Origin: a virus
Direction: 5' to 3' (one strand)
IMG/VR virus record: IMGVR_UViG_3300045988_157693
Location: 1 to 42,546 of that record
DNA length: 42,546 bases
In this document: one piece after another, positions 719 through 17,841 of the stretch
Layout: each line of letters starts with the position of its first letter
Position numbering within the stretch: position 1 is the stretch's first letter
Program-made: the position numbers and the translations under genes
The notes under the pieces: model-generated
The model's database searches: none
What the model saw: only the letters and a program-made list of their open reading frames with translations
Told to the model about the DNA's origin: nothing

Positions 719-1879
719 TCAGTCAAGTGATATAATATGCGATAATTCTTCGTCAATTTTTCGCATAATTTTTTGGTTGTTTTCTTTTGCTCGTCTGTTA
801 CTGATGTCCGTGTAAACATCCTTCGTTGTTGCCTCATTAGCGTGTCCGAGCAACCTCTTAGCTTGTGTAATATCAATTCCTGCCTCATTCAAAAGCGTAG
901 CGTAATTGTGCCTCAGACAATGAGCGGTTATCGTAGTAATGCCATTATCTACGGCATATTGTTTCAACCCAACATCAGCACAATAGGAGTCCCACGCTCT
1001 CTGATAGTAGGTTTCCTTAATCAATTCACCGTTTTCGTCCGTAAACAGATAACCTTTAACCTTTTTTGGAATCTGTAGCATAAGTTGTTCAGGAATGTAA
1101 ATATCCCTTATGCCTGAATCGGTTTTAGGTGTCTTGATAAAAGGTTTAACACCTTTCCAAGATAGGCTCTTGGTAATGTGAAGAACATTTTTATCCCTAT
1201 CAATATCTTCATAACATACAGCTAATGCCTCACCTTTTCGGCATCCAGTCAACAGGACAAAAAAAGCAAACAAGCCAAAAGGCTTATCGACATTATCAAA
1301 GATTATTCTTATTTCTTCCTCTGTCGCAATTCTACGCTTTGTTGACTTTTTACCTTTCGCCTGAATATAATCACAGGGATTATGCTCAATACCATATCTA
1401 CCCTTTCTTATTCCAAAAGAAAAGACACTTGAAAAGACCGCAAGGTGATTTCTTTTAGTTTTCGTTGTGTATGATATCGGCATACTATCAATACATTGTT
1501 GTATATCTGCCGTTCTGATACTTGCAACCATATCGTCTGAAAAAGTTTCCGATAACACTCTGAGTGCGTGAGAGTATCCTCGCTGTGTAGACTCAGATAA
1601 TGTCGGTAGATATTCCTCTTTATAATCTATCAACAATACACCAAGCTTTTGACTTTCCTCAACTTTCTGCTGATATAGCAGGATTTTTTTATTTAACTCA
1701 GCTTTAGTCTTACCGTAGAAGGTTTTTCGTTTACCATTAATGGTTATTGACTTTTCATATCTTCCATCGGCTCGTTTTTCGGACTTCTTCTCAATTTTCT
1801 TCCCACAGTAGCAACAAAACTTACTGTTGATTGGAATCTCTTTCTTGCATTTTTTGCATTTCATCGTTGTTATTTTCAT
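719..1879 (-). CDS. int: Tyrosine recombinase / phage integrase with N-terminal zinc ribbon
   Basis: C-terminal catalytic signature HCLRHNYAT...LLGHANEATTKDVYTDI, plus CKKCKK..CCYCGKK at the N-terminus. The maximal ORF reaches 1936. The ATG at 1879 has GGAG 9 nt upstream. Confidence 0.93.
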   Translation of the reverse strand: MKITTMKCKKCKKEIPINSKFCCYCGKKIEKKSEKRADGRYEKSITINGKRKTFYGKTKAELNKKILLYQQKVEESQKLGVLLIDYKEEYLPTLSESTQRGYSHALRVLSETFSDDMVASIRTADIQQCIDSMPISYTTKTKRNHLAVFSSVFSFGIRKGRYGIEHNPCDYIQAKGKKSTKRRIATEEEIRIIFDNVDKPFGLFAFFVLLTGCRKGEALAVCYEDIDRDKNVLHITKSLSWKGVKPFIKTPKTDSGIRDIYIPEQLMLQIPKKVKGYLFTDENGELIKETYYQRAWDSYCADVGLKQYAVDNGITTITAHCLRHNYATLLNEAGIDITQAKRLLGHANEATTKDVYTDISNRRAKENNQKIMRKIDEELSHIISLD

Positions 1880-2132
1880 TTTCGGCATCTCCGTTGTTTC
1901 TTGGATAGCCGAAGTGAGCATCAACTCGTCTTGCAATGAAGAGAGTTAAAAAAGCGAAAACAATCATGACGATTGTTTCAAGCACACTTGCACAAAGTGC
2001 AGAACTTGCATCGTATGGATTAGCATTCGACATTATTGACATTGATAGCGGTTTTTCAATTAGTGATAAAAACACAATGCCACCTATAACAACCACCCAA
2101 AACCATCCTGAATGTTTTCTTTCTTTTTTCAT
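1821..2132 (-). CDS. Small membrane protein (2 predicted TM segments) in the lysogeny module
   Basis: Strong RBS (gaaaggagataaaaaactATG). Hydrophobic stretches WFWVVVIGGIVFLSLI and VLETIVMIVFAFLTLFI. The 3' end overlaps the integrase start. Confidence 0.7.
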   Translation of the reverse strand: MKKERKHSGWFWVVVIGGIVFLSLIEKPLSMSIMSNANPYDASSALCASVLETIVMIVFAFLTLFIARRVDAHFGYPRNNGDAENENNNDEMQKMQERDSNQQ

Positions 2133-2434: not shown

Positions 2435-2794
2435 CTACCCGAAAACTTTCTTGCAATACTCTTTGAAAACTTTTCTTTGTTCGGGTGTCAACTCAAGATA
2501 CTCTCTTATGACCTTTTCGTCAAGGTCATCAATATCATACTTTTCTTTAATGGTCATCACAATTGAGTCATCAGAGTCTGCATCACGGTTGCCCTCTCCG
2601 TACATAAGCCAATCATAATTGATATCGTATATACGGCACATCAACATAAGCAACGGCTCTTTCGGTTCAACTCTGCCTGTTTCGATGTTTGCAATCACAT
2701 CTCTTGTTACACCTAACCGTTCAGCAAACTTCGGTTGGCTCAACTTATGTGCTGTTCGGACTTCCTTAACTCTTGCGATAAGTTTGTCATCCAT
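2435..2794 (-). CDS. XRE-family HTH repressor (CI-like)
   Basis: N-terminal HTH LSQPKFAERLGVTRDVIANIETGR. It is divergent from the early operon and adjacent to the integrase. Confidence 0.9.
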   Translation of the reverse strand: MDDKLIARVKEVRTAHKLSQPKFAERLGVTRDVIANIETGRVEPKEPLLMLMCRIYDINYDWLMYGEGNRDADSDDSIVMTIKEKYDIDDLDEKVIREYLELTPEQRKVFKEYCKKVFG

Positions 2795-3512: not shown

Positions 3513-3996
3513 GTACGGTTGCGGTAACTGCGGTCATACTTGGTATGACAACGAAGAGCCGACAAAATGTCCGAAATGTAAAGACTGGGATATATATCCT
3601 ATTCTTGTATGCGATGACTGCGGTCTTGAAGATGCAAAGGAAGATTTTCCTTACAACCGACTGTTTGACGGTATGTGTGCCGAGTGCTTTCAGAAGGGCA
3701 TATCAGACATTACAATAGATAATTATATAGGTTGGTGTATTAAACAGCCACCGATAGAGAAATACCGAGGATACAGTATTATTAACACTTGCGAGATTGT
3801 CAACTATGCATACGGCTTGGAATTAGACTATGCAACAGATGACATTGCAATTTCCGCTTTGTTGGCTCAACTTTCTGAGCTTTTACACTCAGAAGCGAGA
3901 ACTTCAAAAATGAGAATCATCATTGAAAACGCAAGAGATTGGGCTTTCGATGACTTAGACTGCTTTTATGAATGGTATGACGAATACGGAAGGTGA
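3505..3996 (+). CDS. Zinc-ribbon protein, hypothetical
   Basis: CGNCGH...CPKC and CDDCG...CAEC motifs. The ATG at 3505 is in the frame of track ORF 3496. Confidence 0.85.
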   Translation: MDKYGCGNCGHTWYDNEEPTKCPKCKDWDIYPILVCDDCGLEDAKEDFPYNRLFDGMCAECFQKGISDITIDNYIGWCIKQPPIEKYRGYSIINTCEIVNYAYGLELDYATDDIAISALLAQLSELLHSEARTSKMRIIIENARDWAFDDLDCFYEWYDEYGR

Positions 3997-13667: not shown

Positions 13668-13951
13668 ATGCAAATTTTATTGAGCTTGCAATCTCAGAGG
13701 TACGCAAGTATGTTTTAAACCACTTAGATAAGTCAGATGTTATACCTATTTTTGACATTTTTGTTGTGTGGCCATGTAAGACTTTGCAAAACCACAAATG
13801 CCTTATCAGCACAACATTACCCGATGGTATGTACTACGAATGCACATACAATGGCTATAAAAACGAAATGTATCTTGACGCATACAAAAAGTTTGAAAAC
13901 AAAAAATTATTTGCGAAAGTGAGGAATAGTAATGAAAGTTACTGCTATTGA
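13668..13951 (+). CDS. Conserved small phage protein with a disrupted or non-canonical start
   Basis: The frame is open from 13658 and reads NANFIELAISEVRKYVLNHLDKSDVIPIFDIFVVWPCKTLQNHKCLISTTLPDGMYYECTYNGYKNEMYLDAYKKFEN. The first canonical start in that frame is the GTG at 13766. The nearby ATG at 13668 is one base out of frame. Confidence 0.6.
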
Positions 13952-14816
13952 TGTCAGCTACTGTCAGACGAATGTTGACTACAACAAAGTCAAGAACAGC
14001 GGTATTGATGCTGTGATTATCCGTGCAGGATTCGGTAAAGAAACCTATCAGAAAGACTCTGAATTTGAAACGCATTACAGGAACGCTAAGAAGGCAGGTC
14101 TTGCGGTCGGAGTATATTGGTATTCCTATGCCTATTCTGTTGCAGAGGCAAAGCAGGAGGCTAAGGTATGCCTTGCGTGCATTAAAGGTAAAACGCTTGA
14201 ATTACCTGTATATTACGACCTCGAGGAGAGCGGTCAGACAAGGCTCGGTATGTCTGCTCTGACAAACATTGCAATTGCTTTTTGTGATGCTATCAAATCG
14301 GGCGGTTACCGTGCAGGAGTGTACAGTAATCTTAACTGGCTCAACAATCACCTTGATTATGAAAGGCTCAGGAGTAAGTACAGTATTTGGCTTGCACAGT
14401 GGTCATCATCCCCAAGTAAAAGCTGTGATATCTGGCAAAATGCCGATAACGGCAGAATCACCGGTATCAGCGGTAATGTTGACACCGATATCATCATGAA
14501 TAAAAACATTATCAAATCAAAATCAGAGGTGAAGGAAGAAATGATTAAGAAGGGTTTAACAAACAATGCTATCCTTGCGTACAAAAAACAGCTTTTGAAC
14601 CTGTATAATGCAGGCATCATCAAGACTAAGGTTGACTCATCTGCAGGTTTCGGTGACGGAACAGAAAAGGCTGTCAGAGAAGTACAGGCTCTGGCGAAAA
14701 TCAAGGTTAACGGTGAGGTTGGAGTCAACACAATCAATGCAACCGCAAAGCTGATGAACAATTATGTCAGCAAGCTAAAAACTAAAATTTCAAACGCAAA
14801 AAAGGCTCTGTCATAA
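13932..14816 (+). CDS. Endolysin: GH25 muramidase plus C-terminal peptidoglycan-binding domain
   Basis: IDVSYCQTNVDYNKVKNSGIDAVIIRAG...VGVYWYSYA...LPVYYDLEE (GH25). GFGDGTEKAVREVQALAKIKVNGEVG (PG_binding_1-like). Confidence 0.93.
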   Translation: MKVTAIDVSYCQTNVDYNKVKNSGIDAVIIRAGFGKETYQKDSEFETHYRNAKKAGLAVGVYWYSYAYSVAEAKQEAKVCLACIKGKTLELPVYYDLEESGQTRLGMSALTNIAIAFCDAIKSGGYRAGVYSNLNWLNNHLDYERLRSKYSIWLAQWSSSPSKSCDIWQNADNGRITGISGNVDTDIIMNKNIIKSKSEVKEEMIKKGLTNNAILAYKKQLLNLYNAGIIKTKVDSSAGFGDGTEKAVREVQALAKIKVNGEVGVNTINATAKLMNNYVSKLKTKISNAKKALS

Positions 14817-14845
14817 TTGACAGATGCCCAGAGATGCTGTATAAT
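14817..14845 (+). promoter_or_regulatory. Perfect sigma70 consensus promoter driving the solitary CRISPR repeat
   Basis: TTGACA (14817-14822), 17-nt spacer, TATAAT (14840-14845). It begins right after the endolysin stop. Confidence 0.8.
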
Positions 14846-14853
14846 ATGAAACA

Positions 14854-14889
14854 CGGAAGTTTGTTTTTTTAATTTCTACTGTGGTAGAT
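14854..14889 (+). CRISPR. Solitary Cas12a (type V-A)-type CRISPR repeat unit
   Basis: The 3' 20 nt TAATTTCTACTGTGGTAGAT (14870-14889) differ by one loop base from the Francisella Cas12a handle UAAUUUCUACUGUUGUAGAU. The UCUAC/GUAGA stem is intact. There is no second intact repeat and no cas gene in the window. Confidence 0.8.
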
Positions 14890-14914
14890 TAGTTTTTTTA
14901 TCCTTTCTTCCGTA

Positions 14915-14954
14915 AAGATGACCTCGTTTATGTCATAGTGTGCGAGGTCATCTT
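14915..14954 (+). other. 12-bp perfect hairpin in the non-coding transcript region
   Basis: aagatgacctcg (14915-14926) / cgaggtcatctt (14943-14954). Confidence 0.6.
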
Positions 14955-15037
14955 GCTTGCCTATCAACACGCAAAAAGTGCGTGCTGTTTAAATCGTCTT
15001 CATAATTTCCTATATATTTACTATTTAACTATGCAGG

Positions 15038-15076
15038 AAAGGCACACCATAAACGGTGTGCCTTTTTTGTTTTTTT
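15038..15076. terminator. Bidirectional rho-independent terminator
   Basis: aaaggcacacc / ggtgtgccttt stem with a T-run downstream and an A-run upstream. It lies between the convergent repeat transcript and the HTH gene. Confidence 0.85.
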
Positions 15077-15260
15077 ATGACTGTTCTGCTGACTGTTCTG
15101 CGATTTGCAGAAGTTTTTCAATAACTAACTTTTCAACATAAATCGGTGGGTTATGTTTTCCCGACTCCCAATCTTGCACGGTACGATACGGAATAAGTAA
15201 CAAATTCGTCATTGCTCGCTGTGTTAATCCTGCTTTAATGCGTGCCTCTTTGATTGTCAT
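15075..15260 (-). CDS. Small HTH protein (61 aa), Aca-like by position
   Basis: LTQRAMTNLLLIPYRTVQDWESGKHNP HTH pattern. AGGAG RBS. Confidence 0.85.
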   Translation of the reverse strand: MTIKEARIKAGLTQRAMTNLLLIPYRTVQDWESGKHNPPIYVEKLVIEKLLQIAEQSAEQS

Positions 15261-15315
15261 AATGTTTTCTCCTTTTCGTTTTTTATTTTGCGTGCCTATC
15301 GGGATTGTGACCGTC

Positions 15316-15350
15316 TGGCCGTCCGCATTACCCGACCCGAAGGTCGGCCA
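15316..15350 (-). other. GC-rich structured intergenic element with a cUUCGg-capped hairpin
   Basis: The minus strand reads CCGACC-UUCG-GGUCGG (plus 15332-15347). The flanking segments TGGCCG/CGGCCA could pair alternatively. The element is sharply GC-rich against an AT-rich context. Confidence 0.4.
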
Positions 15351-15359
15351 CTCTGCGAT

Positions 15360-15653
15360 TTATTTAGAATTAATATATCCACATTTCAAATTACTGCAAA
15401 GACGATTAGATACTTCCTGCAAATACTCTTTTGTTGCAATCGTGATTTCATTGATGATTCCGTTGTAATCTCTTGCAACAATTTCCTTGCTTGCTACTCC
15501 GAAATTGACATTATTGATATTTTCAAATTCAATAACCAACTTGTCTACATTTTCGCCAATTGCGGAATTTGTCCATCTTCTGAGATGACTGATGTTATTC
15601 AGTACAAACTCGCCTTCGTTACTCTCAACCAAGTTTAGAATTTCTTTTTTCAT
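15360..15653 (-). CDS. Hypothetical 97-aa protein (candidate anti-defence gene by context)
   Basis: AAGGAG RBS. It is the first gene after an operator-bearing promoter and is followed by the HTH gene. Confidence 0.8.
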   Translation of the reverse strand: MKKEILNLVESNEGEFVLNNISHLRRWTNSAIGENVDKLVIEFENINNVNFGVASKEIVARDYNGIINEITIATKEYLQEVSNRLCSNLKCGYINSK

Positions 15654-15711
15654 AGTGTTTGCTCCTTTTTTTGTCTGTGGGTGTTGCCCTGTGTTTTGAT
15701 TTGTTGATTAT

Positions 15712-15740
15712 AATATACTACACGGATTTCGTGTTATCAA
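15712..15740 (-). promoter_or_regulatory. Leftward promoter with a palindromic operator in the spacer
   Basis: The minus strand reads TTGATA, 17-nt spacer, TATATT. The spacer contains ACACGAAATCCGTGT (plus 15720-15734). Confidence 0.6.
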
Positions 15741-15824
15741 TACTTTTTTAAAAAAACTTAAAATTTTTTCGGGTGGGATGAGGCTGATAGGCTCAGCTGC
15801 TTTTGCTATCGCATTTTTCGTTAA

Positions 15825-16007
15825 TTACTTACATTCAATACTATCAACTATTGATTTAAGTGCTGTTAATCTGCTTGAAAGATTTTCTAACGCTTCGAGG
15901 TCTGCAAATATACCGCCTAATTCGTCAAGCGTTATATACTCGTCTATCATTTCGTTTATTCTTTTTGCATAAATTCTTGTTAATGCTGTTACATCATTCG
16001 TGTTCAT
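15825..16007 (-). CDS. Hypothetical 60-aa protein
   Basis: GAGGAG RBS. Translationally coupled to the upstream gene. Confidence 0.75.
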   Translation of the reverse strand: MNTNDVTALTRIYAKRINEMIDEYITLDELGGIFADLEALENLSSRLTALKSIVDSIECK

Positions 16008-16264
16008 ACCGTTGTCTCCTCTTCACCTAAATAATTATGTTGCATTTCGTTCCACCTGTTTACTGCGACTCTTACACTTGTATAATTGCCTGTGCAATCG
16101 CAAGCGGGGGTTGAACAATAAACAGCCCAATAGTCTTTATTATCACCAAAAAGACCTCTCTCGGACGCAATAACAATTTTTCTATTCCCACAATGCTTAC
16201 ATGGTAATAATATGTCTTTGTATTTTTCGGTGTAATACTTTGCTTTTTCAAACCGCTTTGCCAT
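16004..16264 (-). CDS. Lar-like zinc-ribbon protein (third paralogue-like copy)
   Basis: CKHCGNRKIV...CSTPACDC...VAVNRWNEMQ. Confidence 0.65.
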   Translation of the reverse strand: MAKRFEKAKYYTEKYKDILLPCKHCGNRKIVIASERGLFGDNKDYWAVYCSTPACDCTGNYTSVRVAVNRWNEMQHNYLGEEETTV

Positions 16265-16288
16265 TACTTACTCTGCTCTCTTTCTTTT

Positions 16289-16555
16289 TTATAACTCAAC
16301 CATAAATGAATAAGATTTTAACAAGATTGCGTCACATACAGCATTAAAATCTTCAAAACGAATATTACTGCTATGCTCGCAAATATCAGTTGCTATTTCT
16401 ACAATATCATCACTTGTAATATCTTCTTTTTTTGTCTTAGCAAGCATATTGCTATATTCTTCATTGTTGCCATTTGTGTACCACGCTCTTTCGATGCATA
16501 AAGCTCTTAATGCATCGCTTGATAATCTTCTAACAACTTTATAACCGTATTTCAT
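16289..16555 (-). CDS. Hypothetical 88-aa protein
   Basis: Preceded by the conserved leader ...GGCTTGACGGGCAGAAAGAAAGAGGTA. Confidence 0.8.
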   Translation of the reverse strand: MKYGYKVVRRLSSDALRALCIERAWYTNGNNEEYSNMLAKTKKEDITSDDIVEIATDICEHSSNIRFEDFNAVCDAILLKSYSFMVEL

Positions 16556-17224: not shown

Positions 17225-17277
17225 TACCTCTTTCTTTCTGCCCGTCAAGCCGATAGCACAGCGATTAGATGTTATGC
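17225..17277 (-). repeat. Conserved 5' leader, copy 2
   Basis: The same 28-nt core as 16561-16588. Confidence 0.7.
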
Positions 17278-17763
17278 CAAGAGTGATTGTTTTTGTGTGA
17301 TTTTCTCACTTCCGAAGAGTTCACGGATTTCATCAAGACTGAAGGTTTTTTTACTCTTCTTCTTGTAATCTTCGTTGTGAAAATACCACGCTGTTTTCTT
17401 TTTCGAAAATCTGAATTTCAAGGCTTTCAACTGTTCACGGCAGTTATATGTGTTGCCTGTTACCCATACCCAATTACCGCAGATTTCAATTTCAATTCCC
17501 TGCAGTTTAACAAGTTCATTGATAATGTTTTTGAACTCTTCGGGAGTTTCTTTTACTTCTTCGGAAGTTTCGTACACTTTACCGTCTGCGGTTGATTTTG
17601 AGTTTTTGAGGATTGCAAAGAGTCTGTCATATTCAGCATTGATTTCTTGCATTTCTTCCGTTGTTCCGCCACAGTCAGGATGATGTGCCATTGCAAGTTT
17701 TTTGTACTGCTTTTTGAGTTCTTCAAGTGTTTTTGGATTGCTAAACCATTTTGTGTTTGTCAT
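17272..17763 (-). CDS. J-domain (DnaJ-like) protein
   Basis: LEELKKQYKKLAMAHHPDCGG...EINAEYDRL contains the HPD tripeptide. AAAGGAG RBS before the ATG at 17763. The longer track ORF runs through the promoter. Confidence 0.85.
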   Translation of the reverse strand: MTNTKWFSNPKTLEELKKQYKKLAMAHHPDCGGTTEEMQEINAEYDRLFAILKNSKSTADGKVYETSEEVKETPEEFKNIINELVKLQGIEIEICGNWVWVTGNTYNCREQLKALKFRFSKKKTAWYFHNEDYKKKSKKTFSLDEIRELFGSEKITQKQSLLA

Positions 17764-17812
17764 AGTGTTTAATCTCCTTTTGTTTTTTTGGAGGTTTCCC
17801 TCTGTTGTGACT

Positions 17813-17841
17813 ATAATAGCACGAATTTCGTGCCTTGTCAA
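17813..17841 (-). promoter_or_regulatory. Leftward promoter of the accessory island with a palindromic operator
   Basis: The minus strand reads TTGACA, 17-nt spacer, TATTAT. The spacer contains the perfect palindrome GCACGAAATTCGTGC (plus 17819-17833). Confidence 0.65.

Follow-up and report, generated by a model that had tools for sequence, protein, structure and literature searches.

The stretch of DNA that was analysed here (hereafter referred to as the window) comprises the 42,546 nucleotides (nt) of the IMG/VR virus record IMGVR_UViG_3300045988_157693, which represents a temperate siphovirus-like phage, and this work concerns a small operon on its minus strand. This operon consists of a promoter (P2) whose spacer carries a palindromic operator candidate, a gene for a 97-amino acid (aa) protein (orf97), and a gene for a 61-aa helix-turn-helix (HTH) protein of the XRE family (HTH61), and the gap between the two genes holds what is almost certainly a twister ribozyme. 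A first-pass annotation of this DNA had described the minus-strand promoter, the inverted repeat, orf97, a 99-nt spacer and the 61-aa HTH protein, and all of these were found at the positions claimed. The association of the promoter, the repeat and the HTH gene is beyond chance, because they recur together in at least 30 related loci. The gap between the two genes (15261..15359) is exactly 99 nt long and no promoter-like or terminator-like site was scored in it; P2 is thus predicted to drive orf97 and the HTH gene as a single transcription unit. The coordinates of these and other features are summarized in Table 1.

Table 1. Features of the operon, of its surroundings and of other phage twisters (positions refer to the window, except for the twister arrays, where they refer to the IMG/VR stretch named).
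Feature	Position	Strand	Remarks
Promoter P2	15712..15740	-	-35 TTGATA 15740..15735, 17-nt spacer, -10 TATATT 15717..15712
Operator candidate	15734..15720		ACACGAAATCCGTGT, ACACG-N5-CGTGT; palindrome in spacer of promoter P2; 5-bp arms, 5-nt centre
orf97	15360..15653	-	97 aa; promoter-proximal cargo; ATG start, AGGAG 8 nt before start
Type-P5 twister ribozyme	15299..15357	-	Rfam RF02684, clan CL00120
Twister stem P2	15357-15354 with 15327-15324		CGCA/UGCG
Twister stem P1	15347-15342 with 15337-15332		CCGACC/GGUCGG, UUCG loop
Twister stem P4	15313-15311 with 15302-15300		CGG/CCG
Twister T1 pseudoknot	15351-15349 with 15309-15307		GUG/CAC
Twister T2 pseudoknot	15323-15322 with 15304-15303		GA/UC
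Predicted cleavage site	between U15330 and A15329	-	GGGU^AAUGCGG; from Rfam alignment and known twister site
HTH61	15075..15260	-	61-aa XRE-family protein; ATG start, GGAG 8 nt before start
Promoter P1	17841..17813	-	TTGACA-AGGCACGAAATTCGTGC-TATTAT, 17-nt spacer; upstream of DnaJ-domain gene
Lar-like gene (weak)	16004-16264		In accessory module; below Pfam cut-off
Hairpin between convergent units	15033..15070		Strong intrinsic terminator on + strand
Solitary Cas12a-type repeat	14871..14889	+	AATTTCTACTGTGGTAGAT; convergent with operon, context only
Promoter of the repeat	14817..14845	+	TTGACA-17-TATAAT (perfect)
Integrase	719-1936	-	Window gene
CI-like HTH	2435-2794	-	Window gene
Terminase genes	begin 17972		
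Twister array, L144	2682-5403		
Twister array, L236	543-1864	-	
Twister array, L193	6493-7458	-	

When the whole window was scanned against Rfam, the single match obtained was to Twister-P5 (RF02684), with a score of 48.7 bits against a gathering score of 37.6, an E value of 3e-7 for the window and coverage of model positions 1-58 of 58. The element begins 2 nt past the stop codon of orf97. The first-pass annotation had referred to this gap as a GC-rich structured spacer and, although it is indeed structured, it is not anonymous, the ribozyme within it having been overlooked. A plain minimum free energy (MFE) fold recovers stems P2, P1 and P4, and the conserved internal-loop nucleotides (GAG.G, U^AAUGC and GGUC.CAA.CCCG) are present except for two paired positions of the T2 pseudoknot. 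The window copy departs from the Rfam consensus core twice, viz. GC to GA after stem P2 and AAGCC to AAUCC in the P4 loop, and these departures compensate one another, the G-C pair of T2 becoming U-A. The positions of T1 and T2 in this copy were assigned after the O. sativa twister structure and the twister architecture reportedly described by Roth (2014) and Liu (2014). Other phage twisters, taken from two IMG/VR pattern scans that gave more than 240 stretches, served to verify the pairing rules, 105-177 of them being measured. Among 105 unique twisters, the middle pair of T1 was U-A in 53, G-C in 25, C-G in 8, A-U in 4 and G-U in 4, so that 94/105 had a standard pair. For T2, a loop G was accompanied by GC (71/105) and a loop C by GG (29/35), and the commonest classes for loop U and loop A were GA and GU, respectively. 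As the pairing rules are upheld in independent phage twisters, both pseudoknots are considered to be intact in the window copy. Hence, this copy matches the full type-P5 model with respect to stems P1, P2 and P4, both pseudoknots and the U^AAUGC context, and it differs by the U-A pair in T2, whereas most of the related copies described below differ by an 8-nt duplication in the P2-P4 linker.

Cleavage was placed 5' of the conserved A in U^AA, the established scissile position of twisters (reportedly Roth 2014, Liu 2014), at the site given by the alignment to the Rfam consensus. The predicted 5' product is an orf97 messenger RNA (mRNA) whose 3' end would be formed by the C(UUCG)G hairpin of stem P1 and bear a 2',3'-cyclic phosphate; the predicted 3' product is an HTH mRNA with a 5'-OH. 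The window copy also has two private substitutions, G15348 at the base of stem P1 and C15318 in the first copy of the 8-nt repeat, both of them outside the conserved core positions. An alternative 5-bp helix could be formed with them, the evidence for which is weak; covariation of the two is unproven, since L003 carries yet another linker variant, which is uncompensated, and the segment is missing from the 51-nt copies of the ribozyme.

The gene downstream of the ribozyme encodes a protein that matches the Pfam family HTH_3 (E value 2.8e-6, 27.7 bits, cut-off 23). In comparisons with PDB chains HTH61 displayed generic XRE similarity, and its best named match, Aca10 (7XI5), was no better than other XRE proteins, with an E value of 3.9e-5 by the HTH family profile, limited to the HTH region, and of 0.42 by the single sequence. 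Promoter P2 agrees with the consensus at 10 of 12 positions, it is kept as TTGACA-17-TATATT in related loci, and transcription from it would start near 15705. The ACACG-N5-CGTGT palindrome in its spacer has one occurrence in the window, as compared to 0.03 expected by chance, and it is presumed to be the binding site of an HTH dimer. Another promoter, P1, which lies about 2 kb upstream of P2 and is also found in L002, L029 and L033-L035, holds in its spacer GCACGAAATTCGTGC, where the operator core is the same as that at 15720-15734. These two are the only CACG-N5-CGTG sites in the 42.5 kb, and each is located in the 17-nt spacer of a promoter-like site. It is probable, therefore, that the HTH protein controls P1 also, and that it is a regulator of a larger accessory module rather than of orf97 alone.

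To place these observations in a wider context, 37 loci on metagenomic contigs were compared, viz. the window, L001-L018 obtained by exact-protein look-up and L019-L036 from IMG/VR. They include a phage lineage with a common backbone, in which the HTH is 89-100% identical. Homologues of HTH61 with 79-100% identity are always present at the 3' end of operons with an operator promoter and variable cargo, and in the diverged promoters of these operons the CACG-N5-CGTG core is kept, always in the spacer. The operator variants seen across the loci are ACACGAAATCCGTGT, GCACGAATTTCGTGT and (A/T)CACGCATTGCGTG(T/C), and the N5 centre is variable, being flipped in L036. The HTH gene and the CACG-N5-CGTG promoter are constant, and the gene or genes between them differ by locus, the position next to the promoter being taken by orf97, by one of five other uncharacterised genes or by none. 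The cargo is orf97 in the window and about 10 other loci, a 74-aa protein in L006, L009, L019 and others, a 234-aa protein in L001, L029 and L030, a 72-aa protein in L003 and L028, orf97 followed by a 221-aa protein in L010, a 171-aa protein in L021 and L036 (followed in L036 by two small open reading frames, ORFs), and longer unrelated genes in L002 and L027. There is no cargo in L008, where the operator promoter and the 5' untranslated region (UTR) are joined straight to the HTH gene. In L011-L018, which represent a different mobile element encoding ParB and a 2,600-2,800-aa protein with MutS_I, LPD25 and helicase domains, an AcrIC5-like 175-aa protein and a 232-aa protein precede a 79%-identical HTH. 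A comparison of L010 (orf97-twister-orf221-HTH) with L011 (AcrIC5-like-twister-orf232-HTH) indicates essentially a swap of the first gene. These sequences show the promoter-proximal slot to be a swap site for unrelated small genes.

Two of the proteins that occupy this slot provide a link to known anti-CRISPR (Acr) proteins. The 171-aa cargo of L021 and L036 carries the Pfam AcrIC5 domain PF22147 (E value 1.1e-19, 70.7 bits, cut-off 27) and so does the 175-aa cargo of L011-L018 (E value 1.4e-18, 67.2 bits, same cut-off), and the HTH proteins encoded downstream of them are 89% (L036) and 79% (L011-L018) identical to HTH61. The AcrIC5-like gene of L011 fills the same slot, upstream of the unit formed by the twister, orf221 or orf232 and the HTH gene, as does orf97 in L010. 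The arrangement proposed in the first-pass annotation, i.e. a small uncharacterised gene followed by a small HTH gene under an inverted-repeat promoter as in acr-aca operons, was confirmed in all its parts, and the guilt-by-association search with the HTH that it had suggested led to homologues (79% and 89%) downstream of AcrIC5-domain proteins, in operons that share the ribozyme and the operator type with the window. Because the same HTH, operator and ribozyme accompany AcrIC5-domain genes, the acr-aca reading is supported by association. The great variability of the genes that precede the HTH gene, and their absence in L008, are also what an Aca module would lead one to expect. We consider it likely that this is an Aca-type anti-defence operon, with HTH61 as a candidate Aca-type autorepressor.

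Operons of the acr-aca type controlled by Aca proteins were reportedly described by Stanley in 2019. It is known that Aca proteins repress their own promoters through palindromes (Birkholz 2019, PMC6765145; Lee 2022, PMC9410881), and the present operon resembles those with Aca1, Aca2 and Aca10 in that the HTH is encoded last and a candidate palindromic operator overlaps the promoter, as well as in the variable upstream cargo, which includes AcrIC5, and in the adjacent RNA anti-CRISPR candidate. It differs from them in that its HTH protein could not be placed in a named Aca family by comparison with PDB chains and in that a ribozyme is predicted to split the mRNA, whereas the RNA-level control known for Aca2 and Aca1 is exerted by the protein on stem-loops in the 5' UTR.

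A different explanation for the regulator is that HTH61 is a general repressor of the early or moron region (Cro-like or C-like), in which case the cargo would consist of ordinary accessory genes and the twister would still process the transcript. Such a role would account for there being two operator promoters, one of which drives the DnaJ-domain gene, the weak Lar-like gene and small genes of no assigned function, and it is in agreement with the lack of any Acr match for orf97 and with the generic XRE similarity of HTH61 to PDB entries, among which Aca10 (7XI5) does not stand out by its score. However, AcrIC5-domain proteins are found in the same slot, the adjacent Cas12a-type repeat is conserved in the lineage, and the combination of this HTH with AcrIC5-like cargo recurs in an unrelated mobile element (L011-L018). 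The Lar-like gene, below the Pfam cut-off as it is, resembles restriction-alleviation genes and thereby hints weakly at counter-defence, and the regulation of neighbouring operons is itself documented for several Aca families (PMC13551039). In view of these points a general repressor appears unlikely.

With regard to orf97, no significant match was found in Pfam, PHROGs or NCBIfam, in accordance with the earlier statement that no sequence motif identifies it, and PDB sequences gave nothing below an E value of 0.09. A match to phrog_8774 (E value 0.0035) was dropped, as it was reproduced in 0 of 54 family members. Its close family is narrow; a profile search of 1.84 billion representatives led to 201 clusters at 50% identity, the members of which are nearly all about 90-115 aa long. 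The AlphaFold (AF2) model of orf97, with a predicted local distance difference test score (pLDDT) of 84.7 and a predicted template modelling score (pTM) of 0.71, consists of a short helix, a four-stranded sheet and a long C-terminal helix. The fold comparison that the first-pass annotation had proposed did not connect this model to any known Acr: the best Foldseek match in the PDB had an E value of 0.28 and a template modelling (TM) score of 0.35, and no Acr was present among the 50 matches listed, whereas in BFVD the sole match was one uncharacterised phage protein. Homologues of orf97 elsewhere sit among small phage genes, where they are followed by a different XRE HTH (L120) or by a small basic protein without a Pfam match (L121 and L122), or have no adjacent regulator (L102). 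Since orf97 shares its slot with AcrIC5-domain genes, it is a plausible candidate anti-defence protein by position only. Two contigs, L053 and L059, are phage contigs with orf97 plus a distant HTH (about 60% identity), and they also carry the Rfam Gut-1 RNA (RF01706; L053 449-523, minus strand, 66.8 bits; L059 1259-1333, minus strand, 53.4 bits).

The juxtaposition of orf97 and HTH61 is also reminiscent of a toxin-antitoxin pair of the HigBA type, in which the toxin gene comes first and an XRE antitoxin second. The operon agrees with such a pair in the order and sizes of its genes and in having a palindrome of the autoregulatory kind, and NCBIfam profiles show weak HipB-type and MqsA-type antitoxin similarity of HTH61, far below the cut-offs. 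Nevertheless, the two genes each occur apart, in contrast to an obligate pair. The HTH gene is found alone behind the operator promoter (L008) or with at least six unrelated upstream genes, orf97 occurs without an adjacent HTH (L102) or with other regulators (L120-122), and Foldseek revealed no similarity of the orf97 model to any toxin fold in the PDB. This explanation is hence considered very improbable.

Of the 37 loci, 29 have the ribozyme. It comes after the first cistron, at 2-6 nt from the stop codon of the latter, and a further 30-45 nt separate it from the start of the following gene. It is nearly invariant across at least five upstream and at least four downstream contexts, and the leader and ribosome-binding site (RBS) 3' of it are conserved while the upstream cargo varies. 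Most of the copies are 59 nt long, with an 8-nt stretch that occurs twice in tandem (GACGGTCA GACGGTCA) in the linker between P2 and P4, and in four loci the length is 51 nt, without the duplication, as noted with the window copy and the twisters of L024, L025 and L031. In one variant of the AcrIC5-like operon, L015 (3920-3975), a long perfect hairpin (UAUUACCUCGGGG...CCCCGAGGUAAUA) stands in place of the twister and the 232-aa gene. A degenerate twister was ruled out here, as there is no ribozyme match even at an E value of 10; the hairpin may serve instead of the ribozyme, as a protection for the 3' end.

Based upon these results, the interpretation that we favour, with a probability of roughly 0.6, is that of a self-repressed Aca-type anti-defence operon in which the twister acts as a post-transcriptional divider. 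Upon infection or induction, P1 and P2 would fire and the orf97 protein, for which an anti-defence role is suggested by position only, would quickly be made. As the HTH dimer builds up, it would occupy the operators and shut both P1 and P2, in the manner of Aca1, Aca2 and Aca10. The twister would fold during transcription and cut between U15330 and A15329. The orf97 mRNA would keep its 5' triphosphate and stop codon and have its 3' end 30 nt beyond the stop, where the 6-bp G+C-rich C(UUCG)G hairpin and the cyclic phosphate should resist 3' exonucleases. The HTH mRNA would begin with a 5'-OH, followed by the constant leader and RBS and, by analogy with glmS, it could be a substrate of RNase J1, with the reservation that the hosts here are uncultured. 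The net outcome would be much cargo and little, context-independent repressor, the dose of which would be insensitive to whichever cargo is swapped in, making this a natural counterpart of synthetic ribozyme insulators. For this uncoupling or insulating mechanism, which is drawn from analogy, we see about even odds.

The analogy with the glmS ribozyme lies in self-cleavage in cis within a Bacillota mRNA, which leaves the downstream coding RNA with a 5'-OH. Collins et al. are said to have reported in 2007 that ribozyme-dependent decay of glmS mRNA in Bacillus involves such a 5'-OH product as the substrate of RNase J1. The glmS ribozyme, however, is located in the 5' UTR and needs glucosamine-6-phosphate (GlcN6P), whereas the twister here lies between two cistrons, so that it would have opposite effects on the two halves of the operon, and has no known ligand. 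Synthetic ribozyme insulators (RiboJ) are reportedly the work of Lou et al. in 2012. Engineered twisters have been placed in polycistronic and 3' UTR reporters (Felletti 2016, as cited in PMC6765202). Both of these designs are similar to the present case in providing a fixed 5' leader for the downstream gene, the difference being that this one is natural and that insulation by it is conjectural.

A number of observations weigh against the favoured interpretation. Eight of the 37 related operons are without a twister, and the ribozyme is therefore dispensable; L021 keeps only its first 14 nt, beside a 94%-identical AcrIC5-like gene, and L015 has the plain hairpin in its place. In L003 and L028 the twister is in the 5' UTR with no gene upstream, and stabilisation of an upstream cistron is thus not its sole role, while in the three-gene operons of L010 and L011 it divides the first cargo gene from the second and the HTH gene. 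The RBS of the HTH gene is unpaired in the MFE folds both before and after cleavage and no local structural switch is evident; this ruled out that cleavage frees the RBS, and any effect would therefore be exerted via RNA ends or stability. As the twister copies are almost identical, there is no covariation within the operon family, and the element could have been spread by recombination rather than by selection. A search of 20 loci with an HTH of about 53-64% identity or with orf97 homologues found no ribozyme at the Rfam gathering level. In addition, neither the sequence nor the fold of orf97 is like that of any known Acr, orf97 homologues of other phages have no twister and no Cas12a-type repeat, and an HTH of the HTH61 family was found downstream on the same strand in only 3 of 258 unrelated phage twisters.

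The twister could accordingly be a passenger without a regulatory role, i.e. a recombination patch or marker for cassette exchange, or the remnant of a ribozyme-bearing element. What speaks for this is that the 51- or 59-nt element is near-identical across different flanks, with junctions exactly at its ends, that 3' fusions are seen in L019, L025 and L033 and microhomology in L002, that operons without a twister and the 14-nt stump of L021 exist, and that the 8-nt duplication in the linker is tolerated. But no copy, that in the window included, has lost the catalytic core or either pseudoknot, and the distances of 2-6 nt from the preceding stop codon and of 30-45 nt to the following start codon fit the rule for phage twisters, which a neutral scar would not preserve; a passenger is thus decidedly unlikely. 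Regarding the borders of the element, the twisters of L019, L025 and L033 run at their 3' end straight into the sequence for the C-terminal part of a different gene (...SPEGVFQVRGHFRRYQTG...), and within the intact gene in L002 (about 3900-3940) there is ATCGCAG-TCCCGAAGG, with a match to each end of the twister. These sequences suggest microhomology-mediated recombination at the ribozyme borders.

The placement rule referred to above was observed in other phage twisters (L123-L242, from IMG/VR). A stop codon is located within 2 nt of the ribozyme in 51 of the 101 of these that have an upstream ORF, and most of them have a start codon with an RBS-like motif within 15-35 nt 3' of the ribozyme. 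Arrays of three to six type-P5 twisters were also found, spaced about 350-590 nt apart with one after each small unrelated ORF, and the P1 stems in them covary strongly between copies; these arrays look like operons cut into single-gene mRNAs. Twisters as a general marker of acr-aca operons were rejected, since near the 258 phage twisters there were 3 matches to the HTH and 0 to orf97 homologues. The HTH61 family being rare near other twisters, the link with an Aca module is specific to this operon family, whereas the intercistronic placement is general. A broader proposition, which we advance tentatively and with more doubt than conviction, is that self-cleaving ribozymes belong to the functional equipment of the counter-defence operons of phages, where the twister behind the first cistron would give much cargo relative to repressor and a repressor dose that does not depend on the anti-defence gene swapped in, that stop-adjacent twisters cut small-gene operons into stabilised monocistronic mRNAs, up to arrays of four to six twisters in other phages with one for each gene, and that orf97 founds an anti-defence family of about 200 clusters with a fold not in the PDB.

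Twister ribozymes were described in 2014. According to a 2019 review their biological role in bacteria and phages is undefined, and processing of polycistronic mRNAs by them has been suggested, with no system named and more work said to be needed (PMC6765202). The bacterial twisters covered there have a phage-gene neighbourhood, as is the case in this Clostridia phage (PMC6765202) but, in contrast to their undefined role, the present copy has a defined context in the first intercistronic gap of an Aca-type operon. Ribozymes find no mention in a 2026 survey of the RNA motifs associated with acr-aca operons (PMC13551039), and a full-text literature search for twister ribozymes together with anti-CRISPR returned engineering papers only, with no link to natural twisters. 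As far as the literature was searched, the occurrence of a twister in an acr-aca-type operon is hence new, the ribozyme itself belonging to a known class. The locus provides a small and tractable system for the study of bacterial twister function, being a two-gene operon of predictable regulatory logic for which natural near-isogenic variants are available, viz. with the twister, with 51 versus 59 nt, with placement in the 5' UTR, with the 14-nt stump and with none. If the favoured interpretation is true, RNA self-cleavage would be a third layer of acr control beside the transcriptional and translational repression by Aca proteins and, if the insulator idea holds, phages would have reached the solution of synthetic biologists for context-independent expression. 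The HTH, operator and twister together also offer a guilt-by-association handle on at least six candidate anti-defence genes in phages of gut Clostridia, orf97 included.

The operon lies convergent to a solitary repeat of the Cas12a type. It is known that solitary repeats (Racr) cluster with acr genes (Camara-Wilpert 2023, PMC10651486), and a gut-bacterial AcrIC5 homologue has been validated and an AcrIC5 homologue adjoins a Racr in a prophage of a gut bacterium (PMC10651486). As in the Racr loci, the repeat lies close to the operon, within 200 nt of its 3' end and with a promoter of its own, and it differs from them in being convergent and separately transcribed. It is identical beside the HTH gene in 27 of 28 loci of the phage lineage, and it is absent from all other HTH or orf97 lineages compared; as it is fixed in the lineage whatever the cargo, it gives no indication of the target of orf97. 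The first-pass annotation had proposed type V-A systems as a possible target, which is not borne out, as no likeness of orf97 to AcrVA proteins (AcrVA1-5) was found in the PDB sequence and fold searches and its homologues in other lineages are without the Cas12a-type repeat. AcrVA structures are among those solved. That orf97 is a Cas12a inhibitor is therefore improbable. It had also been proposed that the two convergent transcripts end at a shared bidirectional terminator. The hairpin between them was scored as a terminator on the plus strand; on the minus strand it is followed by UUUCCUGC (UUUCC) with three U only, and it was not scored as such. A T7 run begins 4 nt after the repeat and the repeat transcript may end there rather than at the hairpin, so that the two transcripts need not share a terminator.

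The operon forms the 3' end of a leftward accessory module, which extends from 17841 to 15075 between the lysis and packaging (terminase) genes, distant from the integrase and the CI-like lysogeny switch. The plus-strand genes of the window include those for a methylase, a dUTPase and a GH25 endolysin (13932-14816). The gene heading the module encodes a DnaJ domain (E value 4.8e-6, 27.0 bits, slightly under the Pfam cut-off of 27.8), and a chain of small genes of no assigned function leads from it down to P2. The listed 189-aa ORF with a TTG start (17272-17841) runs over promoter P1, and its true start is therefore probably a downstream ATG giving about 163-165 aa. A blastn search of 14800-16300 against deposited phage genomes gave no match, and in representative genomes the relatives of the HTH are distant only (66% identity or less), in Lachnospiraceae, Oscillospiraceae and other Clostridia. 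The operon is that of a temperate phage or prophage of gut Clostridia. In L005 (1990-2063) host genes and a tRNA gene border directly on the orf97-twister-HTH unit, which has neither the operator promoter nor the remainder of the leftward module; the prophage seems here to have been truncated at its end or to survive as a remnant. Lastly, the element of L011-L018 has variable genes with Macro-domain, Zeta-toxin or AbiEii assignments, and downstream of its HTH gene there is a 277-aa protein with a second HTH_3 domain.

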